Source of the DNA: Candidatus Latescibacterota bacterium
GTDB lineage: Bacteria; Latescibacterota; UBA2968; UBA8231
Reading direction: 5' to 3'
DNA length: 64,000 bases
Assembly: GCA_965203175.1 (NCBI GenBank)
Contig: OZ241867.1
Location: forward strand, 6,240,001-6,304,000
In this document: positions 37,776 to 58,317 of the stretch, piece by piece
Layout of the letters: each line of letters begins with the position of its first letter
Numbering within the stretch: position 1 is the first letter of the stretch
Program-made: the position numbers and the translations under genes
Notes under the pieces: generated by a model
What the model was told of the DNA's origin: nothing
Database searches by the model: none
What the model saw: only the letters and a program-made list of their open reading frames with translations

Positions 37776-38165
37776 ATGTGGCGGCTAAATACCGAAAACG
37801 CACCAGCGCTGACGCGAGCGGATAAAATTCTCGCACTCGTGGTGGGCTTGAGTGCGATCGGGCTGGTACTCTACGGCCGCTATACGGCCGAAGCCGGCGA
37901 CGTGCTCATTGTCGAGTTGGCGGGAGCCGCGCCCGCCACACATGCCCTCTCCAACTACGGGGTCTTGCCGGTTGCGGGATCTTTGGGAGTGAGCGAGATC
38001 GAGATCGGCCCCAAGGGTGCGCGCGTGCTTTCCGCGCCCTGCGTCCACAAAATCTGCATGCGGCAGGGTTGGATGCAGCGGGCGGGTGACGTGACCGCGT
38101 GCGTGCCCAACGGCTTAGTGCTGAGGATCGCTGGAGCCGCACCCATAGATGCGATGATTCGCTGA
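37776..38165 (+). CDS. NusG domain II-containing (DUF1312-like) membrane-anchored protein
   Basis: N-terminal TM helix and CVHKICMRQGW...ACVPN cysteine motif. Confidence 0.85.
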   Translation: MWRLNTENAPALTRADKILALVVGLSAIGLVLYGRYTAEAGDVLIVELAGAAPATHALSNYGVLPVAGSLGVSEIEIGPKGARVLSAPCVHKICMRQGWMQRAGDVTACVPNGLVLRIAGAAPIDAMIR

Positions 38166-38686
38166 TGTTTGCACACCCTAGAGATGTGGCCCGTTTGGGG
38201 CTTATGGCCAGTGCGGCAATCGTGCTCTTCGCCTTTGAATCGCTGGTGCCCAAACCCTTGCCTTGGATGAAGCTGGGTCTCGGCAATCTGCCAGTTTTGG
38301 TCGCGCTGGTGAGCTTTGGCGGCGGTCCGGCGCTGGCCGTCAGTGCCATCAAGCTCGTAGTTGGCGGCTTGCTCAGCGGCGGATTTGCCGGTCCGGCCTT
38401 TGTTATTGGCGGTGGAGCTGGCTTGGCAAGTTGGCTGGTCATGGTTGCGATCCGCCGCATAGGGGCACGGCTTTTCAGCGTCGTGGGCCTGAGCATTTGG
38501 GGCGCGTTGACGCACCAGCTCAGCCAGCTCGCTCTCGCCGCTGGCTATATCGGCCACAGCGGTCTGTTCGCGCTCTTGCCGCTGGCCTTGTTCAGCGCTT
38601 TGGTGAGCGGGGGGGCTATCGGCCTGGTGGCCTGGTGGACCTTGGAACAACTAGAGAAAATAGGCTGGTTGGACCAAGGACAGTGA
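38165..38686 (+). CDS. Gx transporter family protein (so-called heptaprenyl-PP synthase component I)
   Basis: ESLVPKPLPWMKLGLGN and VGLSIWGALTHQLSQL. TGATG overlap with the upstream gene. Confidence 0.85.
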   Translation: MFAHPRDVARLGLMASAAIVLFAFESLVPKPLPWMKLGLGNLPVLVALVSFGGGPALAVSAIKLVVGGLLSGGFAGPAFVIGGGAGLASWLVMVAIRRIGARLFSVVGLSIWGALTHQLSQLALAAGYIGHSGLFALLPLALFSALVSGGAIGLVAWWTLEQLEKIGWLDQGQ

Positions 38687-38725
38687 TAGATATAAATGTA
38701 TAGACCTTCTCTATAGATCGTCTCA

Positions 38726-40693
38726 ATGGATTTGCCTAAAGAGTCTAGCTTTCAGATTCCAGTACGAGCCGAGCCGGTCTTCAGCGCCAAAGCGCTGTTG
38801 GCAGGCACCCTAGGGTCGCTGTGCATCGCCGTGGGAGCACCTTACGGCAACATGGTCATCCGCGGCTCCTACATGTCCATTGATTTCAGCGCCGCGGGTG
38901 CCCTGTTCCTCTTCTTCTTGCTAACGGGCTTGTTCAACGCCTTGCTGACGCGCTTCGCCGCTCCTGTGGCCCTCGGGCGTTGCGAGCTTATCGTCGCGTA
39001 CATTATGATGCTCACGGCCTCGGCCATTCCCACGATGGGCCTCAGCGAGTACTGGCTGACGATCATCACTGGTGCCCAGTACTACGCCACCCCGGAAAAC
39101 GAGTGGGCCCTACTCATCCTGCCGCACCTTCCCGAGTGGATCACACCGCAGGATCCCGAGGCGATCAAGTGGTTTTACGAAGGAGCACCGCGCACCACTG
39201 GGGTGCCTTGGGCCGCCTGGAGCGGCTCGCTGTGCTATTGGACTATTCTGATCGTAGCCCTGTACTTGGTCATGATCTCGTCTATGGTCATTATGCGCCG
39301 CCAGTGGGTGGAGCGAGAGCGGCTAGTTTATCCGCTGGTGCAGGTACCCCTGGCCATGGTGCAGAGCGGGGGCCGCGGAGAAGCCCTAGGCCCTTTCTTC
39401 AAAAATCCAATCATGTGGGTCGGCTTTGCCCTGCCCGTACTCGTCAGTAGCCTCAACGCCCTACACGCGTACTTCAACTTCATCCCCGCCATCCAACTCG
39501 TCTCTTCGATTCCGATCCTGCGCAACACCGTCAGCCTAATTTTTCGCCTGAGCTTTCCCATGATCGGATTCGCCTATCTAATCAACCTCGACATCGCCTT
39601 CAGCCTGTGGTTTTTCAACACCATTGCCAAGTTGATCCGAGGAGGGCTGGGAGTTTTAGGGGTTGGTAGCACTGAAAAGCTCGTTTACGGCGCTGCTAGC
39701 GAGCCAATTCTCGCCCATCAGGGACAGGGCGCGATGATCGTCCTAGTGGCCTTCGGCCTGTGGGTCGGCCGCGAGCACCTGCGCGACGTGCTGCGCAAGG
39801 CATTCCGAGGCGACAACCGCATCGACGACAGCGGCGAGATGCTCTCCTATCGGGCAGCGGTCTTAACTTGGCTCTCCGGCGTCGCAGTAATGACCATCTG
39901 GCTGTGGCAGTCTGGCTTGCCGCTGTGGGCGGCCTTTTTGACCCTGATGCTGGCCATCCTTATCTTCGTCGGCCTAACTCGAGTGGTAGTAGAAGGAGGC
40001 GTGGCCGCGGCAGTCGGGCCGATGATTTCTCCAACGGTCTTGGTCTCGGCCGTAGGCTCTTCGGCGATCGGCCCGGCCGGCATCGTCGGCCTCGCATACA
40101 CATTCGTGTGGGCGGCGGATATCCGCACCTTTGTCATGGCCTCCTGCGCACATGGCCTCAAGTTGGGTGAAGGACTAGGGTCGCGGCTGCGCCCGCTTTT
40201 TTGGTACATACTGCTGGCGATTGTCGTTAGCATCATCGGTTCGGTCGCAACGATTTTGTACCTCGCCTACGAATACGGCGGCATCAACCTCAACCCGTGG
40301 TTTTTTGGAGGTGGAACTCGCGCCCCTTTTGATTATATTACCACCAAGTTAAGCGCACCCACCGAGCCGAATATCAATGGCTGGATTCACACTTTTGTCG
40401 GCGGGGGCATCATGGCCCTGCTCATGTGGGCGCGCCAGCGGCTCTTGTGGTGGCCTCTGCATCCTATCGGCTACCCGATTGGTGCCGTATGGCTGATGGA
40501 CCAGTTATGGTTTAGCATTGCCATCGCTTGGCTCTTAAAGTTGTTGGCGATGAAATACGGCGGCCCCAGCCTTTTTCGTCGGGCGCGTCCTTTCTTTTTA
40601 GGCCTAATCATAGGCCAGTTTTTTATCGCGGGGCTCTGGTTGATTATCGATTTTTTTACGGGCATGACCGACAATGTGGTCTTCTGGATCTGA
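38726..40693 (+). CDS. DUF6785/DUF6784-type polytopic membrane protein (OPT-like)
   Basis: About 16 TM helices, RRQWVERERLVYPLVQVP, and WWPLHPIGY...KYGGPSLFRRARPFFLGLIIG. Confidence 0.75.
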   Translation: MDLPKESSFQIPVRAEPVFSAKALLAGTLGSLCIAVGAPYGNMVIRGSYMSIDFSAAGALFLFFLLTGLFNALLTRFAAPVALGRCELIVAYIMMLTASAIPTMGLSEYWLTIITGAQYYATPENEWALLILPHLPEWITPQDPEAIKWFYEGAPRTTGVPWAAWSGSLCYWTILIVALYLVMISSMVIMRRQWVERERLVYPLVQVPLAMVQSGGRGEALGPFFKNPIMWVGFALPVLVSSLNALHAYFNFIPAIQLVSSIPILRNTVSLIFRLSFPMIGFAYLINLDIAFSLWFFNTIAKLIRGGLGVLGVGSTEKLVYGAASEPILAHQGQGAMIVLVAFGLWVGREHLRDVLRKAFRGDNRIDDSGEMLSYRAAVLTWLSGVAVMTIWLWQSGLPLWAAFLTLMLAILIFVGLTRVVVEGGVAAAVGPMISPTVLVSAVGSSAIGPAGIVGLAYTFVWAADIRTFVMASCAHGLKLGEGLGSRLRPLFWYILLAIVVSIIGSVATILYLAYEYGGINLNPWFFGGGTRAPFDYITTKLSAPTEPNINGWIHTFVGGGIMALLMWARQRLLWWPLHPIGYPIGAVWLMDQLWFSIAIAWLLKLLAMKYGGPSLFRRARPFFLGLIIGQFFIAGLWLIIDFFTGMTDNVVFWI

Positions 40694-40710
40694 GAAAGGC
40701 ACTTACAATT

Positions 40711-43700
40711 ATGCCTAAATTCGCGGTGAAGTGGATGGCCCTCGGCTGGATTTTGGCCAGCGTGGCACCGGCCTGGACCGAGGTCGATTTTGCCGAGTTG
40801 GCACGGACGACCCCAGTCGAGCGCGTGCAGCAGACGATGGACACCTTTGCCAGCATGGGATCTAGAGTCGCTGGCTATCCAGGTGCCGACCAAGCGGCCC
40901 AGATCGTGCAGGAGCGCTTCCGCGCAATCGGCCTCGACGATATCGCAATCCACGAATACGATGTCTCGATTCCGGTCGATAAGGGTGGATTCCTGCAAGT
41001 CGTCGGCAACGGCGAACAAGTGCCAATCCACGGCCTCTGGCCCAACCTCGTCAAAACCTCGACGTTGCCCGAAGGCGGGATGACCGGGCGCCTGATAGAC
41101 GCTGGCGCGGGTGAGTACGCGGATATGGACGGCAAACAAGTCGAAGGGGCCGTAGCCCTGATGGACTTTAATTCGGGCGACGCCTGGCTCAATGCCGCCT
41201 ATCTCGGAGCGCAGGCCATCATCTTTATCGAGCCGGATTCCACCGTGTACTTGGAGGGCGAAAAGAAATTCCTCACCATGCCGCTCGACCTGCCGAGGTT
41301 CTGGGTCAATCGCCAAGCCGGCCAGCACTTGCGCCGCCAGTTAGCCGCAGGGGGCGAGCAGACGCTCCACTTGGAGTACCGCATGGATTGGGAGCGGTGC
41401 CCCGCTTGGAATATCCTCGGCACGATTCCCGGATACGACCCCTTGCTGAAAGAAGACGTGATCGTGCTGGAGGCGTACTACGACGCCATGTCGGTCGTGC
41501 CAGCCCTAGCCCCGGGTGCCGAGCAGGCCTCCAGCATTACTGCGCTGTTAGAGCTGGCGCGCTATTTTCGCGCGAACCCGCCAGCGCGCACGATCGTCTT
41601 TCTCGCCACCTCGGCCCACCACTTGGGCTTGCGCGGGGTCGATGATTTCATCCAGCGCTATTTGCGCAAAGAGGATCCCTTTATCGAACACATGCTGGTG
41701 CGGCGGGTCGTCGATGCCGCACTCGCGCAAAACATGATCGCCCAAGACGGCATCCACTACGCCATCGGCGAGGAGGAGTTTACCGGCAAGGAAGCCCTCG
41801 TGCGGAGCGTTGCTGAAGGACGCACCGACTTGGCCGCGCACATTGCCGACGCCGCTCTCGCCGAAGGGCTGCTGAGCCAAGAGCAAGGCGCACTGCACCT
41901 CGCCGACGAGCAATTCAAAAACCGCGACGAACTAGTTGATGAACTGCACTCGGATGACGACTTGCGCCTCGCGCTCTACAAAACTTGGGCCGACCCCAAA
42001 GTCGATTCGCTCGCGGTCAAACTCTTTATCAGTCTCGACCTTTCGTCGCAAACCGACGAGCTCGGAGTCTGGAACAGCAATACCAGCTTTTACTACAAGC
42101 GCTACTTCGCGCCCTTCGGCAAGAACTTTATGGGTTATGCGCGCAAGATCAGCCGCGAATTGGGCTACCAGCAGCGCGACGTGCTGGTCAATGGCATCAG
42201 CCCCGAAGGCGGGATGAGCTGGCAGACTTTTGTACCGGGCGAAATATCGGTCAACAGCGAATTGGTGTTGGCGACTGGCACGCCAGCGTTGGCCTTTGTC
42301 ACAGTCAACGACGCGCGCTTCCTCGTCGATACGCCCTTAGACCGAGCCGAGCGCGTCAACCACGCCAATCTCGCCAAACAGATTCGGGTGCTCGCCGGTA
42401 TGTTCGAGATGGCCTTTGAAGACCCAGAGCTTTTCCCGGACTTCAAGATGCGCCTGCGCGACAATCTGCGCTCTCTGCGCGGCCGGACCATGGTCTTTCC
42501 GCGCCGCAGCATCATCCCCGACCTGCCGCGCGCAGACGCAGTAGCCGTCGTGCGCAACGGCAAGAAAAAGTCGTATAAAGGCGTGCGCGGCGAGTACTAC
42601 GAGGTTGTCGATGATAAGGGGGCCTTCTACGTAAATCGAGTGCGAGTCAACAACGTGCAGATCGAGGGCTATTACATGGACCCGATCACCGGCCGCATCA
42701 CCTACGCCCCGGACCGCGGCGTGCAAGGCGACGAGAGTTACCCGATGAGGGTATCCATGGACTGGCGCGATAAGCAGTGGATGGTCATTCTCTTCCCCTG
42801 CGTGCCCTACAACTTCTTCGACATCGTTGATCCGCGCTATCTCACCAAGCTGTCCAACGTGTCGGTCTTCGATGAGACAAACGGCGCGCCCGTGGAGTAC
42901 GGTTACACTATTGGCGAAGGCCCCTCGGCCCAGAACGAGCCGGTTGGAGTGCTGTTTGCGCGGCCCGGCTCGCACATAAAAATGGGTTTTGGTGCGGGCC
43001 TGCTGGGATTCCGCTCGCTGCTGCTCAACTCCACCAGCGTCACTGACAAAGACAAGGCCGAGGGTGAGGGCTTTGAGATCCGCCCCGGCACCTCTTTTGC
43101 CCGCACGACCTTCCAAGCCGCCCAAGACATGTGGAATCTCGACGAGTCGCGGATGCGCGAACTGCGGAGCTTTGCCATTGAGAATCAGCGTCTCAACGAC
43201 CTCCACTACCGAGCTGAAACCGAGTTAAACCAAGCCGCAGCGGCTGGTACTGAGCAACGCTGGGGAGATTTCGTGCGTCACACGCGCGCGGCCTTCGGGC
43301 TAGAATCGCGCGCCTATCCAGACGTCAAATCCACCCAAAACGACGTCGTTCAGGGCATTATCTTCTTCATGGCCCTCGTCCTTCCCTGCGCCTTTTTTAC
43401 CGAGCGGCTCATTTTTACTGCCGCCACGATCCGCAATCAAATCATCGGGTTTGCCGGGGTTTTCCTAGTGATCTGGATCGTGCTGTGGTTGGTGCATCCA
43501 GCCTTTCAGTTATCCAATCCCTTCGTCATCCTGCTCGCTTTCATCATCATCGTGCTAGCCGTTCTCGTGATGTCGATCATTTCCGGCCGCTTCAACGAAC
43601 AGATGAAAAAGCTGCGCACCGAGGTGGCAGTGATCCACGACACGGACGTCAGCCGCTCTTCGGCCTCGCTGACCGCCTTCCAGCTCGGGATTTCCAACAT

Positions 43701-45462
43701 GAAGCGGCGCAAGACGCGCACGGTCCTCACCTTTACCACGCTCTTGCTGCTGACCTTTACGGTTCTCTCCTTCACCTCCATCCGCACGGGCCTGCGGTTC
43801 AACCAAATCAGCCGCGACAACGAGGGGCTCTACGAGGGCATCCTAATCCGCAGCAAGGCGTGGAATCCGATGGAGGATTCAGTCCTCGAATACGCCCGCA
43901 GCAATTTCGGTGATCGGGCTGCGGTCGCGCCGCGTAGCTGGTACAGCAATAAGGCTAAAGCGCACATCAAAATAAAACACGGAGAAAACGCCCATAACGC
44001 GCTCGGCGTCCTTGGGTTGACCCCTGAGGAGACCCAAGTCACCAGGCTGAATCAAGCCCTAGTCGCCGGGCGGTGGTTCGAGCCGGGCGAGGACAAGGTC
44101 TGCATCCTGCCCATCGACATGGTCAAAGAAGATCATCTCGACATCGACCTCGCTAAAGTTGGCCAGGAGCAGGTTCGCATCTTCGGCGACTTGTTCACGG
44201 TCGTTGGCGTCCTCGACTCCAAGCGGATGAAGGATCTCAAAGACCTCGACGACGAAATCTTGACGCCAGCCGACTTCGCCGTCACCGGCGGCCAAGCTGT
44301 GCAGGAGATCGCCGAGGAAGAAAAGCGCGAGAAGCAGGGCTTGGAGGACGCCAAGGTCGTCATCAAGCCCTTTGTCCATATAGAGCCGGCCAACATCCTA
44401 ATCGTGCCTTACCACACGCTGCGCAACGTCGGTAGCGGCAATCCCCTGCAATCCGTGGCCGTGCGCTTCCCCGCGGGCAGCGACGTGCGGGGCGAGGTCG
44501 AGGAATTCCTCTCGCGCCTCGCGGTGACCCTGTTCGCCGGAGTCAAGGAGGCTGGCGACGAATACATCAAGGTGTCGATCTACTCATCGCTGGGGATGAC
44601 CTCCTTTTCCGGGATCAGCAACTTGTTTATCCCCATGCTGATCGCCTCGCTGATCGTGCTCAACACCATGATGGGCAGCGTGTACGAGCGCTTCCGCGAA
44701 ATCGGCATCTACTCTTCGGTGGGCTTAGCCCCCGGCCACATCTCTTGGCTCTTTATCGCCGAAAGCTGCGTCTATTCGGTGCTGGGCGTCGTCGCCGGTT
44801 ATCTCAGCGGCCAAGTAATCGCCAAAGTACTCATCGAATTCGAACTGCTGGGCGGCTTCACGCTCAACTACTCTTCAGTGGCCGCGGTGCTCTCCTGTAT
44901 GCTGGTGATGGCCGTGGTCATGCTCTCGACGATCTATCCAGCGCGCAAGGCTTCGCAGATGGCCGTGCCGGACGTGACCCGCAAGTGGAAACTGCCACCG
45001 CCCGACGGCGATCAGTGGGATTTCGAGTTTCCCTTTACGGTCAGCGGCCACGAGGTCTTGGGTTTGAGCGTATTCCTCATCGGCTACTTCGACTCCTATA
45101 GCGAAGAGTCCATCGGCACTTTCTACACCGACGGTGCCCAGCTAAGCCGCGAAGAAACGCCCAACGGCGAAGGATACATCATCGACATGAATATCTGGCT
45201 GGCTCCTTTCGACTTGGGCGTCAGCCAACACGTCACCGTGCGGGCCATGCCAGAGGCCGAGCACAACATTTACGCAGTCAGCCTACAAATTAAGCGACTC
45301 AGCGGCGAGGACGCCTCGTGGCGGAGGGTCAATCAGCGCTTTATGAACGTCATCCGCAAACAGTTCCTCATCTGGCGCACGGTGGATGCCGAGGCCAAAG
45401 AAGGCTACCGCCAACAGGGCGCGGAAATTCTGCAAGGGCTGCGCAGCGAAGTTTCGGCGTAA
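40711..45462 (+). CDS. 1583-aa fusion: signal peptide, PA/M28-like domain, TM bundle and FtsX/MacB-type permease
   Basis: SRVAGYPGADQAA, AYYD..APGAEQASS..LLELAR, SNMKRRKTRTVLT, and SVYERFREIGIYSSVGL..YPARKAS. Confidence 0.8.
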   Translation: MPKFAVKWMALGWILASVAPAWTEVDFAELARTTPVERVQQTMDTFASMGSRVAGYPGADQAAQIVQERFRAIGLDDIAIHEYDVSIPVDKGGFLQVVGNGEQVPIHGLWPNLVKTSTLPEGGMTGRLIDAGAGEYADMDGKQVEGAVALMDFNSGDAWLNAAYLGAQAIIFIEPDSTVYLEGEKKFLTMPLDLPRFWVNRQAGQHLRRQLAAGGEQTLHLEYRMDWERCPAWNILGTIPGYDPLLKEDVIVLEAYYDAMSVVPALAPGAEQASSITALLELARYFRANPPARTIVFLATSAHHLGLRGVDDFIQRYLRKEDPFIEHMLVRRVVDAALAQNMIAQDGIHYAIGEEEFTGKEALVRSVAEGRTDLAAHIADAALAEGLLSQEQGALHLADEQFKNRDELVDELHSDDDLRLALYKTWADPKVDSLAVKLFISLDLSSQTDELGVWNSNTSFYYKRYFAPFGKNFMGYARKISRELGYQQRDVLVNGISPEGGMSWQTFVPGEISVNSELVLATGTPALAFVTVNDARFLVDTPLDRAERVNHANLAKQIRVLAGMFEMAFEDPELFPDFKMRLRDNLRSLRGRTMVFPRRSIIPDLPRADAVAVVRNGKKKSYKGVRGEYYEVVDDKGAFYVNRVRVNNVQIEGYYMDPITGRITYAPDRGVQGDESYPMRVSMDWRDKQWMVILFPCVPYNFFDIVDPRYLTKLSNVSVFDETNGAPVEYGYTIGEGPSAQNEPVGVLFARPGSHIKMGFGAGLLGFRSLLLNSTSVTDKDKAEGEGFEIRPGTSFARTTFQAAQDMWNLDESRMRELRSFAIENQRLNDLHYRAETELNQAAAAGTEQRWGDFVRHTRAAFGLESRAYPDVKSTQNDVVQGIIFFMALVLPCAFFTERLIFTAATIRNQIIGFAGVFLVIWIVLWLVHPAFQLSNPFVILLAFIIIVLAVLVMSIISGRFNEQMKKLRTEVAVIHDTDVSRSSASLTAFQLGISNMKRRKTRTVLTFTTLLLLTFTVLSFTSIRTGLRFNQISRDNEGLYEGILIRSKAWNPMEDSVLEYARSNFGDRAAVAPRSWYSNKAKAHIKIKHGENAHNALGVLGLTPEETQVTRLNQALVAGRWFEPGEDKVCILPIDMVKEDHLDIDLAKVGQEQVRIFGDLFTVVGVLDSKRMKDLKDLDDEILTPADFAVTGGQAVQEIAEEEKREKQGLEDAKVVIKPFVHIEPANILIVPYHTLRNVGSGNPLQSVAVRFPAGSDVRGEVEEFLSRLAVTLFAGVKEAGDEYIKVSIYSSLGMTSFSGISNLFIPMLIASLIVLNTMMGSVYERFREIGIYSSVGLAPGHISWLFIAESCVYSVLGVVAGYLSGQVIAKVLIEFELLGGFTLNYSSVAAVLSCMLVMAVVMLSTIYPARKASQMAVPDVTRKWKLPPPDGDQWDFEFPFTVSGHEVLGLSVFLIGYFDSYSEESIGTFYTDGAQLSREETPNGEGYIIDMNIWLAPFDLGVSQHVTVRAMPEAEHNIYAVSLQIKRLSGEDASWRRVNQRFMNVIRKQFLIWRTVDAEAKEGYRQQGAEILQGLRSEVSA

Positions 45463-45475
45463 GGGAGGATAGCGA

Positions 45476-47896
45476 GTGCTCGGAAGCAAAAATAGAAACC
45501 CGAACCAAGAGATCGAAGAATATCGGGATTTAATGCAGGTCCCGGACCGCTTCGAGAACGGCTTTACGATCAAGGCCATCCTCGGCGTGCTCTTCGTCGC
45601 CTTCATCATGGTGCCGGGCAATATGTACTTGAGCCTGATGATCGGCGGCTCTTTGGGGGCGGCGGCCGAGTGGGTGACCATCATCCTCTTCGCCGAAATC
45701 ACCAAGCGTTCCTTCTCCTCCCTCCGGCGCCAAGAAGTCTATGTGCTGTTCTACGTGGCCGGCTCGCTGATTGCCGCTGAGACTGGTGCCTTTGAGGGCT
45801 TGCTCTACAACCAGTACTTGGTGCAATCGCCAGCGGCCAAGCAGTTCGGCATCACCAAGCTGATTCCCACTTGGGTGGCTCCGCCGCTCGACTCCTCCGC
45901 CATCATCGAGCGTACCTTCCTACACTCGGATTGGACGATGCCGATCATCCTCCTAGTCTTGGGGATGATCATCTCGCGCATCAACTGGTTCACTATGTCA
46001 TACGCGCTCTTCCGGCTCAGCTCCGACTACGAGCGCCTGCCCTTTCCCTTCGCGCCCGTAAACGCCCAAGGTGCTACGGCGCTGGCCGAGACTACCCAAG
46101 GACTTGAGACGTGGCGCTGGCGGGTCTTCTCGGCGGGGGCGATGATCGGCTTGGTCTTTGGCACGATCTACGTGGCCCTACCGGCGATTACTGACGCGCT
46201 GCTGACCGAGCCGATCCAACTCATACCCATTCCCTTTGTCGACTTCACGCAAGTTACCGGCAACTTTATCCCGGCCACTCCGCTGGGATTTACCGCGCAC
46301 TTAGGGCCGATCTTCGTCGGTCTAGTGGTGCCGTTCTGGGGCGTGATTGGCACCTTTATCGGCGTGGCCGTCACCTCCATTGCCAGTCCGCTGCTCTATA
46401 CCTGGACGCCTTCGTGGCGCGAGGAGCCTTACCTGAACTTGTGGCAGCAAGGCATGGGCACGATCGAGACCTACTTCGTCAACTACGTCGATTTCTGGAT
46501 GAGTTTCGGCCTCGGCACCACTGTCGCCATCGCCGTCATCGGCATCTATCAGATATCTCAGAGCGTGCGCAGTGCTAGGGCTAACAAGAGGGATGATGAC
46601 AGTCCCAAGCGCAGCTTCGCCCCCCCCGCTGGCCGAGGCGATTTCCCCATCTGGGTGGCGTTGGCACTATACGCTTTAGCCACGGCCGGCCTGATCGGCA
46701 TCGCCGCTTGGCTGCTGCCGGGCATTGCCCAATTTATATGGTTTTTCCTCTTCTTTGGTTTCGTATTTACGCCCTTTCAATCCTTCGTCAACGCCCGCCT
46801 AGTCGGGATGGTGGGGCAGACGGTGGACATCCCCTTCGTGCGCGAGGCCACGATTATCTTCTCTGGGTATCGCGGTGTTGACATCTGGTTCATTCCGTTT
46901 CCCTTGGGCAACTACGGTGCCCAGACCCAGAAGTTCCGCGAAATCGAATTGACCGGAACCCAGTTTACCAGCATTATCCGCGCCGAGATTTTCATGGTAC
47001 CCATCGTGCTCTTTACCAGTTTTCTCTACGGCTCCTACATCTGGAAACTAGCACCGATCCCGTCGGCCTCCTACCCCTATGCCCAGCTCATGTGGCGGCT
47101 GCGCGCCTATCAGCAATGCCTCTACATCACCGGCACTATGCGCAGCGAACTGGCCATAGACAAAGACCGGGCGGGATGGACCCCGGCTAACCTAATCGAA
47201 AACGAGTGGTGGTACTGGCGGGTGCGGCTAGTGGATCAAGAATGGCTGGACTCCAACGGCAATCTCGGTCAAGTCGGCCCGTGGATGCCGACCCAAGTTT
47301 TCTACTCGTACTTCGATCAGGGGGCACCCGACATTGTCGCCGAGCGCTACCTGCGCGACGAGCAGCTAGCCGAAGAGGAAATTGTCGAGGGCCTGCCGGC
47401 AGTTGTCCCGCTAAGGCCGGCCATGGACACCATCATTCGCGCGCCCCGTCCGACCCTCGAAGTGAAGGCCGAGCGAGCCGTGCCGGCGGGGTGGTCTTTC
47501 TACTTTGAGGTCGATACTGATCCGCTCTTTACAAGCTCTTGGATCCAGCGGTCCACCGACGTGCCTTGGCTCTTTAGAGCGCTGAAACCAGAGGTCATCG
47601 CCTTTGGTGCCGGCTTAGGGCTGGTGAGTTTCTTTCTGCTGTCCATCCTCGGGCTGCCAATCCTGCTGATCTTTGGCTTCGTGCGCTCGCTGGCGTCCAT
47701 ACCACATTACGTGGTGACCGAGATCATCGGCGCGCTCTTGGCTCGCTACTACTTTTGGAACAAGTACGGGCGGCAGGAATGGCGGCAATTTGCCCCGGTT
47801 CTGGCGGTGGGCTTCTCCTGCGGCATGGCATTGATAGGGATGGCGGCGGTGGGGATCGCCCTGATCCAGAGATCAGTCTCCGTGCTGATCTTCTAG
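45476..47896 (+). CDS. OPT-superfamily-like peptide transporter with inserted soluble domain
   Basis: FENGFTIKAILG, LRRQE, ERLPFPFAPV, APIPSASYPY, many TM helices. Confidence 0.75.
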   Translation: MLGSKNRNPNQEIEEYRDLMQVPDRFENGFTIKAILGVLFVAFIMVPGNMYLSLMIGGSLGAAAEWVTIILFAEITKRSFSSLRRQEVYVLFYVAGSLIAAETGAFEGLLYNQYLVQSPAAKQFGITKLIPTWVAPPLDSSAIIERTFLHSDWTMPIILLVLGMIISRINWFTMSYALFRLSSDYERLPFPFAPVNAQGATALAETTQGLETWRWRVFSAGAMIGLVFGTIYVALPAITDALLTEPIQLIPIPFVDFTQVTGNFIPATPLGFTAHLGPIFVGLVVPFWGVIGTFIGVAVTSIASPLLYTWTPSWREEPYLNLWQQGMGTIETYFVNYVDFWMSFGLGTTVAIAVIGIYQISQSVRSARANKRDDDSPKRSFAPPAGRGDFPIWVALALYALATAGLIGIAAWLLPGIAQFIWFFLFFGFVFTPFQSFVNARLVGMVGQTVDIPFVREATIIFSGYRGVDIWFIPFPLGNYGAQTQKFREIELTGTQFTSIIRAEIFMVPIVLFTSFLYGSYIWKLAPIPSASYPYAQLMWRLRAYQQCLYITGTMRSELAIDKDRAGWTPANLIENEWWYWRVRLVDQEWLDSNGNLGQVGPWMPTQVFYSYFDQGAPDIVAERYLRDEQLAEEEIVEGLPAVVPLRPAMDTIIRAPRPTLEVKAERAVPAGWSFYFEVDTDPLFTSSWIQRSTDVPWLFRALKPEVIAFGAGLGLVSFFLLSILGLPILLIFGFVRSLASIPHYVVTEIIGALLARYYFWNKYGRQEWRQFAPVLAVGFSCGMALIGMAAVGIALIQRSVSVLIF

Positions 47897-47897
47897 C

Positions 47898-48890
47898 ATG
47901 AGCGCTTGGGTAGATTTCGCTTGGCAGGGACTACAGTTGTCCGTGCCGGACGACTGGAATCTCGGTCGGGTTGACGGGGATTTTGAAAAGGGCTATGCCC
48001 GCCTCGACGACGCCGAAATCGTGCGCGCCGAGATCGAATGGCGGCGTCTCAAAGGCCGCGGCGAGGCCCTGCGTCTGACCGAGTTGGTAGATCGCTACTT
48101 AGCCAATCTGCAAAAGAAGGCCCAAAAGGTCGATGCTCCCTTTGAGGTCCAGCGCCGCGCTCGCTTCCTCAAGAACAAGAAATTCCTCGAAGGCCGAGAA
48201 TACGAAGTCTTCATCTGGGAGGCCGACTTCCGCGCGTACAACCTAGCGCTCGCCTTGAAGTCCGGGCGGGTTGTGCTCCTGCGAGTGCTGGCCAAGCCAG
48301 ACGAATTTTTGCCCGAGCAAGCCGAGGCCGTGTTCAGCTCGCTCGTCGATCAAGAAGGCGAGGACGCTCATCTGTGGAGCGTGTACGGCTTGCGGTTTTT
48401 CGCGCCTAGCGACCTCAAGCTACAGAGCCATTCCCTCAAGTCGGGCCATATTGAATTAGAGTTCTCCCTCGGCAAACAAGTTCTAAAGGTGCATCGGTTG
48501 AGCATGGCCCGGATCATGCTCAAAGACGCACACATCCAAGACTGGTATCCGGTTTTTTTTAAAAAGCAATTGCGCGACTTCGTGGTGGACATTGTTCCAG
48601 AAGCCGTGCAGGAACACGAGGGCATTCGCGTCGAGGGGCGGCCGCGCAGCCGCTGGCGTCAGCTTTTGCGTCCCTTGCCCTTTATAAACCCGAGGCCGCG
48701 CCTGTATATGCGGGGGCGCATCTGGCGCGATACCGGGATCGACAAAATCGCCATGGTCGAGCACCTCTACCGCAAGAAAGACGCACAGGACGATCTAGTC
48801 GCCAAGGTAGTAGATGGGCATTTTATCGAAAAACAAGGGACCCAAGCTGAGCCGGGCCGCCATGCTGGCGTCGCGGCCAACGCGCAATGA
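47898..48890 (+). CDS. Hypothetical soluble protein
   Basis: 330 aa, starts 1 nt after the previous stop. Two similar segments, FAWQGLQLSVPDDW and WSVYGLRFFAPSDL. Confidence 0.7.
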   Translation: MSAWVDFAWQGLQLSVPDDWNLGRVDGDFEKGYARLDDAEIVRAEIEWRRLKGRGEALRLTELVDRYLANLQKKAQKVDAPFEVQRRARFLKNKKFLEGREYEVFIWEADFRAYNLALALKSGRVVLLRVLAKPDEFLPEQAEAVFSSLVDQEGEDAHLWSVYGLRFFAPSDLKLQSHSLKSGHIELEFSLGKQVLKVHRLSMARIMLKDAHIQDWYPVFFKKQLRDFVVDIVPEAVQEHEGIRVEGRPRSRWRQLLRPLPFINPRPRLYMRGRIWRDTGIDKIAMVEHLYRKKDAQDDLVAKVVDGHFIEKQGTQAEPGRHAGVAANAQ

Positions 48891-55525: not shown

Positions 55526-57817
55526 TTGGATCTAGTCGAACCTATACCCGAACGCCTACTGCCCCACATCCGCGGCGAATTACAACCCGGCGAGCTGCTC
55601 ATAGTCCTGCTCGCCGCCGACATTCGCCCCGACGGGCAGTACGGCGACTCTTGGTTTGCTCTCACCGACGAGCGGATGCTCGTCTTTCACCCCAATGGCG
55701 CAGATAAGCCCGATACTGTGCGCCTCGGCTTGGACGAAGTGCAAGGCATCCAGACCCGCAACTACGTGGGCAGCGGTGCACTCGTCGTCGAGCTAGAGGA
55801 TGAGACCGTCGAGCTGCTGCGCTTTTCGCAGAGTGCGTATTACAAATTCTCCGGCGTGCCCCAAGCCATCGAGGGCGCTGGCTTGGTCGAGGAAGAAGAC
55901 GCAGACGAGGACGGGGCGCTGCATGTCGATCCGGTCAAAGTAGTAGAACACTGCCCCACCTGCGGACTCGCCCTCCGCTCTGGCTCCAAAATCTGCCCCA
56001 ACTGCCTGCGCCAGACCGAGACCTTCTGGCGATTGTTTTCCTACATTAAGCCCTATAAAAGACAAGCACTACTCGGGTTCACGCTGACGATTGTGCTGAC
56101 GGCCATTGGTCTGCTGCCGCCTCAGCTCAACCGCATCCTCATCGACGATGTCATCATCCCGGTTCTCGCCCAATACGAAGCTGCGGGCATCGTCGAGGGC
56201 GAGGCGACCACGCCCCCTGCCGCGAGCGTCCAACTCCTGCTGTGGGTCGTGCTCGGCCTGCTCGGTATCTATATCGGCCGCGGCATCATCAGCGGCGTGC
56301 GAATGTACGCCCTAGGGTGGCTCGGCCAGCACATTGTGTACGATTTACAGAGGCAAATTTTCCAACATTTGCAATTGTTGTCGCTGACTTTTTACAACAA
56401 GCTCAGCACCGGTCGGATCATGACCCGAGTCACCAGCGACACCGAGCGCATGCGCAGCTTTATCACCTCGGGGTTCCAAGACATCGTCATCGACGGGCTG
56501 ACCATCATTGGCATCTGCACAATGCTATTTGTAATGAATTGGGAATTGGCGCTTTTGTCGCTGATCCCCATCCCCTTCATGATCATCGGCACCATCATCT
56601 ACCGCAACCGCATCCACTGGGTTTTCCACCGGATATGGCGCCGCATCGCCGAACTCAACGCCATGCTCGCCGACTCCATCCCCGGCGTCAAGGTCGTCAA
56701 GGCCTTTGCCCAAGAAAGCCGCGAGGTCGAGCGCTTCACCGAGCGCAATATCGATGTGCGCGAATCGCAGATGACCTCGTTCAAGATGCGGTCCTACTAC
56801 ATTCCGACGGTCGCCTTTACCACCTCAGTCGGCTCGATCATCCTGTGGTGGTTTGGCGGCAATCGGGTGCTCAGCAACGCCCTGACCTTGGGCGAGTTGC
56901 AGGCTTTTATCTCGTACATGGTCATGTTCTACGCGCCGGTGCGCTCGCTGTGCACCCTCACCGAGCAGCTAGAGACCGCAGCGACAACCGCCGAGCGCGT
57001 CTTTGAGATCATCGACACCGAGCCCGAAGTCCAAGACGACCCCGACGCCATCGACCCCGGCCCACTTACCGGCGAAGTAGAATTCCGCAACGTCAGCTTC
57101 ACGTACGACGGCTCGGCGAGGATTCTCGACCGCATCCACTTTAAGACCACACCCGGCGAGATGATCGGCATCGTCGGCCCCAGCGGCGCTGGCAAGTCAA
57201 CTCTGGTCAACCTCATTTCGCGGTTCTACGACGCCACCGACGGCCAAGTCCGCATCGATGGCCAGCCCATTACCCGGCTCAAACAGCAGGCACTGCGCAA
57301 CCAAATCGGCGTGGTTTTGCAAGAGCCGCTGCTGTTCCAAGGATCCATCGCCAGCAACATTGCCTATGGCCATCCCGAGGCCACGCGCCAAGAGGTCATC
57401 GAGGCGGCCCGCGCAGCCAACGCCCACAAGTTCATCATGAATTTTCCCGATGGCTACGACACCCAAGTCGGCGAGCGCGGCGGTCGGCTCTCCGGCGGCG
57501 AGCGCCAGCGCATTTCCATTGCCCGCGCCTTGATCGGCAACCCACGTATCCTGATCCTCGACGAGGCCACCGCCTCAGTCGATACCCAGACCGAATACGA
57601 AATCCAAGAGGCGCTCGAGCGATTAGTCGCCGGCCGCACCACCTTTGCCATCGCCCACCGGCTCTCGACCCTCAAAAATGCCGACCGACTGCTGGTGTTG
57701 GAAAGAGGACGCGTCGCTGAAGTCGGCACCCACGAAGAGTTGCTCAATAAGGAGGACGGCGTCTATCGCCGACTGGTCGATATGCAAACCGAAATGGCGA
57801 AAGTGCGGGCGCTATGA
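55526..57817 (+). CDS. ABC exporter (TMD plus NBD) with N-terminal PH-like and zinc-ribbon extension
   Basis: CPTC..CPNC, GPSGAGKST, LSGGERQR, DEATASVD, AHRLST. Confidence 0.9.
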   Translation: MDLVEPIPERLLPHIRGELQPGELLIVLLAADIRPDGQYGDSWFALTDERMLVFHPNGADKPDTVRLGLDEVQGIQTRNYVGSGALVVELEDETVELLRFSQSAYYKFSGVPQAIEGAGLVEEEDADEDGALHVDPVKVVEHCPTCGLALRSGSKICPNCLRQTETFWRLFSYIKPYKRQALLGFTLTIVLTAIGLLPPQLNRILIDDVIIPVLAQYEAAGIVEGEATTPPAASVQLLLWVVLGLLGIYIGRGIISGVRMYALGWLGQHIVYDLQRQIFQHLQLLSLTFYNKLSTGRIMTRVTSDTERMRSFITSGFQDIVIDGLTIIGICTMLFVMNWELALLSLIPIPFMIIGTIIYRNRIHWVFHRIWRRIAELNAMLADSIPGVKVVKAFAQESREVERFTERNIDVRESQMTSFKMRSYYIPTVAFTTSVGSIILWWFGGNRVLSNALTLGELQAFISYMVMFYAPVRSLCTLTEQLETAATTAERVFEIIDTEPEVQDDPDAIDPGPLTGEVEFRNVSFTYDGSARILDRIHFKTTPGEMIGIVGPSGAGKSTLVNLISRFYDATDGQVRIDGQPITRLKQQALRNQIGVVLQEPLLFQGSIASNIAYGHPEATRQEVIEAARAANAHKFIMNFPDGYDTQVGERGGRLSGGERQRISIARALIGNPRILILDEATASVDTQTEYEIQEALERLVAGRTTFAIAHRLSTLKNADRLLVLERGRVAEVGTHEELLNKEDGVYRRLVDMQTEMAKVRAL

Positions 57818-58317
57818 GCGAGACACGCGGTTATTCGTACGGGGATTTTGTGCTCGACCCGCAAAAGATGCGTTTCAGCCGCTCCGAGCGCGGCAGCTTG
57901 ATCCTCACGGTCGACGGCGAGGAACACACCGACCTCAAGATCCGCCGCGCCTTCCCATTAGAAGAGTCCGACCGCTACATCGGCGTCTTTGCCGCCGAAG
58001 ACCAAGAACTCGGCATAATCGAAGACCCGCAGCAACTCGACGACCAAAGCCGTCAAGTGCTCCTAGACGAGCTCAACAAGATTTACTTCCAACCGCAGGT
58101 CCTCGCTTTCGATAGCCTCGACGAAGAATTCGGAGTACTGCGCGGCCAGATCGAAACCACCAGCGGCCCTCGTCGACTCGAAATCCGCAGCTACCGCACC
58201 AATGTGCGCATGCTCTCTGGTGGCCGAGCTATCATTGAGGACGTCGATGGCAATCGCTATCTGATCGCCAACTGGCGGGCGCTGCCACAAAAAACGCGCG
58301 AGATTCTGGGGCTGTAG
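57814..58317 (+). CDS. DUF1854 domain protein
   Basis: RAFPL..YI..ELGII..YFQPQV..IEDVDGNRYLI. ATGA overlap with the ABC gene. Confidence 0.8.
   Translation: MSETRGYSYGDFVLDPQKMRFSRSERGSLILTVDGEEHTDLKIRRAFPLEESDRYIGVFAAEDQELGIIEDPQQLDDQSRQVLLDELNKIYFQPQVLAFDSLDEEFGVLRGQIETTSGPRRLEIRSYRTNVRMLSGGRAIIEDVDGNRYLIANWRALPQKTREILGL

Follow-up and report, generated by a model that had tools for sequence, protein, structure and literature searches.

A gene that fuses an M28-type peptidase domain to a MacB/FtsX-type permease lies on the forward strand of the Candidatus Latescibacterota bacterium DNA analysed here (the window: 64,000 nt of contig OZ241867.1, positions 6,240,001 to 6,304,000, assembly GCA_965203175.1), and most of the zinc ligands of its M28 domain have given way to a different but strongly conserved set of residues. 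The open frame runs from 40528 to 45462, and the ATG at 40711, 18 bases 3' of the stop of the upstream gene, is the likely start codon, giving a gene of 40711..45462 and a protein of 1,583 residues, to which all residue numbers below refer. The orthologs P0006, P0007 and P0009 have the same length and the orthologs overall measure 1,580-1,611 residues. Three Pfam families, Peptidase_M28, MacB_PCD and FtsX, match above their cut-offs, the first at residues 234-319 with 36.0 bits (cut-off 21.3), covering profile positions 1-79 of 193. The protein begins with a putative signal peptide or signal anchor (residues 1-22; 40711..40776), seen as a hydrophobic stretch at residues 5-22 that is followed by Ala-Pro-Ala and modelled as a helix at residues 2-17 with a pLDDT (predicted local distance difference test) of 64-71. 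This stretch is not conserved among the relatives of the protein and is, from its sequence, probably a cleaved signal peptide.

A first-pass annotation, made from the DNA letters, had reported altered M28 motifs at 41440..42360, and all four are present, in frame and within this one gene (41473-42342), namely AYYD at residues 255-258 (41473-41484), GAEQ at 269-272 (41515-41526), SAHHLG at 301-306 (41611-41628) and VDTPLD at 539-544 (42325-42342). They belong to an M28-fold ectodomain at residues 23-575 (40777..42435; sub-domain borders are approximate). An AlphaFold2 model of residues 1-650, built from a 40-row alignment, reached a mean pLDDT of 91.9 and a predicted template-modelling score (pTM) of 0.91, and according to this model the ectodomain comprises the entire M28 core plus a PA-type insert at about residues 96-231, as in Bacillus subtilis BSAP (YwaD, 6hc6) and the Aneurinibacillus aminopeptidase 2ek8, so that the model and the Pfam match both bear out the M28-like assignment of the first-pass annotation. 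Foldseek placed 2ek8 (1.6e-23), BSAP (2.2e-21), Pseudomonas PaAP and 3iib at the top of the PDB matches, followed by transferrin receptor 1 and GCPII. With VIA-align, model residues 22-573 superposed on the Aeromonas aminopeptidase 1amp with Z 28.6 and a root-mean-square deviation of 2.5 Å over 268 of 291 residues, on BSAP with Z 28.0-28.3 over 388-389 residues and on 2ek8 with Z 28.2 over 386, ahead of transferrin receptor (about 25.7), glutaminyl cyclases (24-26) and GCPII (about 25). A Foldseek-independent search of 48,161 representatives returned the same order (1rtq at Z 28.4), and the GPI-transamidase chains 7w72_A and 7wld_G scored Z 18.2-18.9 in the wide structure search. The reading we favour is that the ectodomain descends from active PA-domain aminopeptidases. 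In addition, the model and the paralog alignment delineate a lineage-specific insert of ~115 residues (321-435; 41671..42015) between the helix with the His-His pair and the LDLSS strand, which consists of two helix-plus-three-strand units whose halves are weakly alike (E 0.016). The genome, a single 6.58-Mb contig, encodes seven M28-permease paralogs, and this insert is missing in five of the six others; one paralog has a different, partial insert.

The canonical zinc sites were mapped by HMMER alignments to YwaD/BSAP, 2ek8 and the Aeromonas aminopeptidase, the site residues of which we take to be 97, 117, 151, 152, 179 and 256, and by a MAFFT alignment that included two M28 proteins from this genome in which the His/Asp/Glu-Glu/Asp/His set is complete; the pocket residues named here are thus residues defined by sequence alignment. 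The first canonical His has become Tyr256 and its partner Asp is kept as Asp258 (Tyr256-Tyr257-Asp258 for His-x-Asp; 41476..41484), and the bridging Asp is conservatively changed to Glu271 (Glu271-Gln272, with Glu271 at or beside the bridging position; 41521..41526). The general-base Glu is replaced by His303 and the adjacent ligand Glu by His304 (41617..41622), the second ligand Asp is kept as Asp443 in 'LDLSS' (42037..42039), and the last canonical His has become Asp540, with the Asp after it kept as Asp544 (Asp540-Thr-Pro-Leu-Asp544 for His-Thr-x-x-Asp; 42328..42342, by the 2ek8/YwaD domain-2 and MAFFT alignments). Of five canonical ligands one is therefore identical, one conservatively changed and three replaced, and the general base is replaced as well. 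The earlier statement that the zinc ligands had been replaced holds to this extent but overlooked the retained Asp443, and GAEQ is indeed an altered GADD, with Glu rather than Gln in the place of the ligand Asp.

Two of these assignments depend on the alignment used. Relative to the solved enzymes the loop lacks one residue, and for this reason the placements of Glu271 disagree by one position: the MAFFT alignment pairs Glu271 with the ligand Asp and the HMMER alignments set that Asp against a gap. Asp443 is paired through the MAFFT alignment, the nicalin alignment, which sets it against the LD motif of nicalin, and the strand pattern of the model, and the HMMER alignment to the Aeromonas aminopeptidase puts its motif elsewhere; Asn494, tried as the fourth-ligand equivalent, was dropped for Asp443 on the grounds of conservation and of the paralog and MAFFT alignments. 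As far as the aligned residues tell, the rebuilt pocket cannot be a canonical two-zinc aminopeptidase centre.

The replacements characterise a large family. A search with residues 1-650 against 1.84 billion cluster representatives returned 2,984 matches at E≤1e-3, 1,400 at ≤1e-10 and 703 clusters at ≤1e-30, and column counts were taken from the best 150 cluster representatives at 50% identity, in none of which the canonical His/Asp/Glu-Glu/Asp/His set is present. Position 256 is Tyr in 118 of 150 representatives (His in 11, Phe in 10) and position 258 is Asp in all 150, whereas position 272, which is never Asp, varies among Gln (55), Ser (40), Ala (16) and Asn (15). Position 271 holds Glu in 108/149 and Asp in 24/149 (together 132/149), His occupies position 303 in 145/146 and Asp position 540 in 118/136, and Pro542 and Asp at position 544 are found in 135/136 and 134/136, respectively. 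Asp443 is kept in 109 of 115 representatives, the query not counted, and in all seven paralogs of the genome. Ranked by entropy among 467 well-covered positions, Asp258 comes 3rd, His303 4th, Pro542 6th, Asp544 7th, Asp443 30th and Asp540 58th, and the commonest signature reads Tyr-Asp-Glu-x-His-Phe-Asp-Asp-Asp. The ligand replacements, read from these columns, are fixed and not decaying: few positions of the domain are as well conserved as the new residues, which argues for a working pocket over a relic, and with so strong a constraint the pocket may be a remodelled metal or catalytic site.

The His-His pair, which the first-pass annotation had put forward as a possible novel metal site, does not extend to the family. 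Position 304 is Phe in 85 of 146 representatives (His in 17, Tyr in 15) and in six of the seven paralogs of the genome (two of the seven keep His at position 256), and His304 prevails among the close relatives retrieved by a word-indexed search (117/121). In a FastTree phylogeny of the 138 of 153 rows with <25% gaps, midpoint-rooted and including two outgroup sequences, the family groups as a single clade (support 100) apart from the two canonical M28 proteins of this genome. Phe304 is found on every one of the earliest branches, and 11 changes are required to account for His304, at least 7 of them forced by well-supported branches. Given these early Phe304 branches and the multiple changes on the tree, the His-His pair appears to be a derived, local state, and the invariant feature of the family is the single His303. 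Among the Y/EQ/HH residues highlighted at first, Tyr, Glu and His303 are thus mostly kept, Gln272 is variable and His304 is a minority state.

The remainder of the protein is a membrane-embedded permease body. A second model, of residues 560-1583 (pLDDT 83.1, pTM 0.72), shows a transthyretin or carboxypeptidase-regulatory-like beta sandwich at residues 586-697 (42466..42801; weak VIA matches, Z 8-10), followed by a helical stalk. Hydropathy marks seven transmembrane helices, three at residues 879-957, one at 1006-1024 and three at 1299-1408. The first three, also helical in the model, are additional (43345..43581), and the other four belong to a MacB/FtsX-type unit at residues 979-1421 (43645..44973), in which an amphipathic helix, TM1, a periplasmic core domain and TM2-4 follow one another; the four-helix unit with a periplasmic domain between TM1 and TM2 is thus present. 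This unit is supported by Pfam (MacB_PCD at 1004-1190, 34.9 bits against a cut-off of 27; FtsX at 1306-1417, 56.9 bits against 25.5), by PDB profile matches (MacB at 1.1e-14, also YtrF, LolF and LolC) and by structure: VIA returned YtrF at Z 17.2 (346 residues aligned), the transporter 5xu1 at 16.5, MacB at 16.3, FtsX at 15.3 (3.0 Å over 164 residues) and LolC at 14.5, the permease matches spanning model positions 418-863, and Foldseek returned MacB at 4.4e-10 for the second model. That the M28-like head faces the periplasm follows from helix parity and from the periplasmic location of the MacB core. A cytoplasmic alpha+beta tail domain at residues 1433-1559 (45007..45387), seen in the model and conserved in the family consensus, resembles Aha1/START/KA1-like folds only weakly (Z 8-9); its position is about that at which one would look for an ATPase partner. 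A second FtsX unit, as in a duplicated permease, formed by the N-terminal anchor, the ectodomain and the three additional helices, was considered but has no support at the sequence level, the three-helix bundle aligning with TM2-4 at an hhalign probability of 0.2% and each gene having one FtsX match.

The genome holds 92 ABC_tran and 49 FtsX matches, and none of the 92 lies within 10 kb of the seven M28-permease paralogs; nor is there one among the neighbouring genes scanned. In 18 loci from other genera, hand-picked from long contigs and carrying 19 M28-permease genes, ABC_tran was found nearby for one gene, and an ATPase domain is absent from 13 long relatives of the protein. The motif YERxREIG in the TM2-TM3 loop is nearly invariant in the family, and the helix of this loop is presumably the place where the ATPase docks in FtsX-type permeases. 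ADOP proteins are FtsX-type permeases that occur in large paralogous sets and are termed 'orphan' when there is no adjacent ATPase gene, and for these orphans an ATPase acting in trans has been proposed. Given the retained motif and this analogy, we infer that an ATP-binding cassette (ABC) ATPase encoded elsewhere probably drives the MacB-type unit in trans. Two further observations concern such genes. An ADOP-like orphan arrangement of ~15 duplicated FtsX-type permeases of ~800 residues occupies ~2,060,000-2,111,000 of the same genome, with just two small ABC ATPase genes, at 2,060,393 and 2,074,024. Within the window, an ABC exporter of an unrelated type (ABC_membrane plus ABC_tran, 763 residues), followed by a DUF1854 gene, lies ~10 kb away at 55526-58317.

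The M28-permease gene is part of a tight same-strand cluster at 38099-48890. It is preceded by genes for a small membrane protein of 195 residues (38099..38686; Pfam Hpre_diP_synt_I, 7.3e-32) and for a multi-pass membrane protein of 655 residues with DUF6785 and DUF6784 (38726..40693; 1.7e-123 and 1.6e-31), and it is followed by genes for a multi-pass membrane protein of 806 residues (45476..47896) and for a soluble protein of 330 residues and unknown family (47898..48890). The 806-residue protein has no Pfam match, yet its family is homologous to DUF6785 by hhalign (probability 92%, E 6.4e-7), with an ERLPFP-type motif common to both; the 330-residue protein matched nothing in Pfam, NCBIfam or the PDB and only unnamed clusters in the Atlas, and the 806-residue and DUF6785 families had no PDB match either. 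At 58 ortholog loci, found with a single protein query that retrieves close orthologs (63-97% identity) from metagenome-assembled genomes labelled Latescibacterota or 'Gemmatimonadetes' and one labelled Planctomycetota, several of them cut by contig ends, the neighbours include the small membrane protein 55 times, the DUF6785 protein 37 times, the 806-residue type 49 times and the 330-residue protein 46 times.

Beyond the orthologs it is the DUF6785-type proteins that accompany the permease. All seven paralogs of the genome adjoin DUF6785 and/or the 806-residue type, the latter beside four of the six other paralogs, and 17 of the 19 genes in the other genera have a DUF6785-type neighbour or fusion, whereas the small membrane protein and the 330-residue protein are limited to the ortholog group and absent from 24 other paralog loci. 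Paralog 5 is a single chain of 2,132 residues that joins the M28-permease to DUF6785 and DUF6784 (L012:9405-15803) and is followed by a TonB-dependent receptor gene; a second single-chain fusion, of 2,287 residues, was found at L090:6491-13354, and the fused form of about 2,120 residues has 56 cluster members. A complex prediction for the DUF6785 protein with the TM2-4/tail segment scored 0.23 against a mark of 0.32, a result that counts neither for nor against binding.

The remaining neighbours vary. TonB-dependent receptors stand beside two of the seven paralogs, some paralogs neighbour M42, M55 or M24 peptidases or a PDZ-bearing version of the 806-residue type, and others have spermidine synthase-AdoMet decarboxylase fusions or oxidoreductases nearby. 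In one lineage a fusion gene of the AdoMet decarboxylase-spermidine synthase type follows immediately downstream of the M28-permease (L074:11452-12738 and L076:18040-19317), and open reading frames of the same size occupy the matching position in L083 and L087; this arrangement might hint at a polyamine link. The DUF6785-type proteins may be OPT-like importers, as hinted at by a match of one of five members to the OPT superfamily TIGR00728 (E 7e-5, 21.6 bits against a cut-off of 128, over 63 residues) and by Atlas neighbours of the partners that are named 'peptide transporter' or OPT (0.77-0.79, below the 0.9 level); these proteins had no match to Pfam OPT or in the PDB. Among the 13 long relatives, of up to 3,053 residues, in some the M28-like domain is preceded by LysM repeats or by Big_5 Ig-like domains (P0231, P0252; P0203, P0237, P0271, P0204).

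Whether it recognises or catalyses, the domain is most likely the non-canonical head of an uncharacterised transport machine of the envelope. Taken together, we tentatively favour, at a little under an even chance, an explanation in which the head is a non-canonical recognition module for a peptide-like ligand on a MacB-type machine that works with DUF6785-type proteins. Tyr256, Asp258, Glu271, His303, Asp443 and Asp540 take the place of the two-zinc site in a periplasmic head, which is tethered through the beta sandwich and the helical stalk to the transmembrane helices, the MacB/FtsX-type unit and the cytoplasmic tail. The head might serve as the substrate-recognition module, possibly metal-binding, of a mechanotransmission-type machine, where the MacB-type unit, as it moves, would present the ligand held in the pocket or let it go and the ligand would be handed to the DUF6785-type multi-pass proteins. 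We speculate that the pocket most probably accommodates a peptide or else an amino-terminal group, a theme faintly suggested by the partial OPT match, the Atlas names and the neighbouring peptidases, PDZ fusions and TonB-dependent receptors. Several points weigh against this explanation. An ATPase partner did not come to light, none of the significance thresholds used is reached by the links to peptides and OPT, and the other neighbours are heterogeneous, including the spermidine synthase-AdoMet decarboxylase fusions and oxidoreductases. The LysM and Ig-like domains that some relatives have ahead of the M28-like domain point to the cell wall and not to nutrients. Moreover, an invariant His at the general-base position with four conserved carboxylates looks equally like a catalytic or metal centre, and the former site 1 of the ortholog group retains one His and two carboxylates (Glu271, His304 and Asp540).

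These last points lead to the strongest of the alternatives, a neo-functionalised hydrolase (a peptidase, amidase or similar) acting in the periplasm ahead of the neighbouring transporters, which we regard as less likely than recognition but as a serious contender. In such an enzyme Glu271, Asp443 and Asp540, with Tyr/His256 or His304, would hold the metal and His303 would act as general base, in keeping with the near-invariance of His303 and Asp258, the conservation of Asp443, Asp540 and Glu/Asp271, and the alignment of Glu271 with the bridging Asp. The members with His256 (11 of 150 representatives and two of the seven paralogs) would have a His/Glu/Asp set like that of canonical site 2, and the ortholog group swaps Glu/His to His304/Asp540 with the ligand composition preserved. 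The high scores of the M28-fold glutaminyl cyclases, which are single-zinc enzymes, are also consistent with a hydrolase. Activity with a His at the general-base position has a possible precedent in the E151H variant of the Aeromonas aminopeptidase, which is described as functional in the title of PDB entry 2anp and in that of Bzymek et al. 2005, as given in the reference list of PMC3426542, and which is the best-scoring Aeromonas form by sequence because its His matches His303. However, no member of the family has the canonical set, and the commonest signature, with Tyr256 and Phe304, leaves at most three carboxylates and one His. For the head we infer ligand binding rather than hydrolysis. 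An FtsEX-type regulator of envelope remodelling, whose MacB/FtsX unit would pass conformational change on to an M28-like head that reads peptidoglycan stem peptides or controls a hydrolase, appears improbable. It would accommodate the FtsX structures among the matches of the permease unit (Z 13-15) and the LysM repeats before the M28-like domain in two of the 13 long relatives, and M28-fold and related enzymes do act on short peptides such as stem peptides. Yet LysM is confined to a minority of relatives, an FtsE-type ATPase or a hydrolase partner was not found near the gene, and seven paralogs per genome and the DUF6785 linkage suit nutrient handling better than division.

The first-pass annotation had further seen in the domain a possible prokaryotic counterpart of nicalin and nicastrin, and a relationship of this kind, as ortholog, ancestor or counterpart with the head as an inactive receptor subunit of a membrane complex, is in our view very improbable. 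The likeness of the AYYD...LLELARYF stretch to nicalin is real locally: with residues 240-292 alone, nicalin is the best match among all PDB sequences (E 1.1e-3), the two having in common YDA, V-x-P-x-L, LLELAR-x-F and an equal YD-to-GA(D/E) loop length. A catalytic-type-domain profile built from the seven paralogs puts nicalin (2.5e-6) level with the Aeromonas aminopeptidase (E151H 1.8e-6, other forms 5e-5 to 9e-5) and ahead of YwaD (2.7e-4), and the family profile matches nicalin at 1.2e-8 across positions 253-578. Over the whole N-terminal region, however, the bacterial aminopeptidases 2ek8 (2.4e-21) and YwaD (1.9e-20) are far ahead of nicalin, and transferrin receptor (about 3e-4) and nicastrin (0.3-0.65) follow; apart from the local match, the domain thus resembles nicalin and nicastrin no more closely than it does generic M28 enzymes. 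By structure, active M28 enzymes head the list together with transferrin receptor 1 and GCPII, and neither nicalin nor nicastrin is among the matches listed (best 50 each) in three structure searches, where the lowest listed scores were Z 24.9 and Z 17.9. Nor are the substitutions common to both, since nicalin, as aligned here, still has the first His and the GAD Asp where the family has Tyr and Glu, and shows Gly-Lys at the Glu-Glu position, which is His-His or His-Phe in the family. The domain architecture and the partners encoded beside the gene are unrelated. The chain 9c7v_B of the nicalin-containing human BOS complex matches the beta sandwich at residues 586-697 with Z 8.0, which we treat as coincidence because many unrelated Ig- and transthyretin-like domains score alike.

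A bolder version of the recognition hypothesis, which we consider a rather long shot, is a new kind of envelope machine in which a MacB-type mechanotransmission body that has lost the gene for its own ATPase feeds DUF6785-type channels with periplasmic cargo captured by the M28 pocket, be it the amino terminus of a peptide or a metal ion bound to the cluster of tyrosine, carboxylates and histidine. If so, Latescibacterota and allied phyla would possess a third route of nutrient import beside binding-protein ABC and TonB-coupled systems, and the local likeness to nicalin might reflect an old M28 lineage specialised for docking on multi-pass complexes.

Irrespective of its function, the protein combines known kinds, a non-canonical M28-fold domain and a MacB-type permease, in a family that is itself large and uncharacterised. 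Of the 121 genomes sampled from the phylum, 108 gave a match at E≤1e-30, and these cover 13 of the 14 taxonomic families, the remaining one having 0/13. The source annotations read 'M28 family peptidase', 'FtsX-like permease family protein' and 'DUF6785 family protein'; searches of the full-text literature (supplementary files being outside the scope) found nothing on the M28-permease family or on DUF6785, DUF6784, PF20581 and PF20580, and returned unrelated matches only for M28-FtsX permease peptidases and for bacterial nicalin homologs. The protein is not a one-off degenerate domain but the marker of a large unstudied family that joins M28 folds with a changed or lost zinc site, FtsX/MacB permeases without an ATPase and uncharacterised DUF6785/DUF6784 proteins. 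For the latter, the constant linkage and the recurrent fusions provide a concrete hypothesis of function. For the biology of pseudo-enzymes, the family offers a bacterial case of a former active site that has been rebuilt and has not decayed, and one that is experimentally tractable because the replaced residues are conserved.

Compared with known systems, the ectodomain is closest to the PA-domain aminopeptidases BSAP/YwaD and 2ek8, with which it has the M28 core and the PA insert in common. However, these enzymes are secreted in soluble form and use two zinc ions with the complete His/Asp/Glu-Glu/Asp/His set. The ectodomain has other residues in place of three ligands and of the general base, contains an extra insert of 115 residues and is fused to a permease body with seven transmembrane helices. 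The core likewise superposes on the Aeromonas (Vibrio) proteolytica aminopeptidase 1amp/1rtq, which lacks a PA domain and has the full zinc set that is missing here. With MacB, LolC, YtrF and FtsX, the type VII ABC permeases, the protein has in common the FtsX domain, the MacB core and the four-helix unit, and a single FtsX unit per chain was detected. It differs from MacB-type permeases by having no fused or neighbouring ATPase, three additional transmembrane helices, an ectodomain of about 850 residues and a cytoplasmic tail of 165 residues. The duplicated ADOP permeases (TIGR03434) are the best NCBIfam match to its C-terminal part (E 2.3e-9), but at 36 bits against a cut-off of 622, and with one FtsX unit and an M28-like head, the protein falls outside that family. 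Nicalin (7tm3 chain 7; 6w6l chain 5), a eukaryotic protein of the endoplasmic reticulum with a single anchor and different partners, is similar in presenting an M28-like ectodomain without the Glu-Glu pair on a membrane machine, and an ectodomain of this kind on such a machine is also the only likeness between the gamma-secretase and BOS complexes and the MacB/FtsX-fused protein described here.

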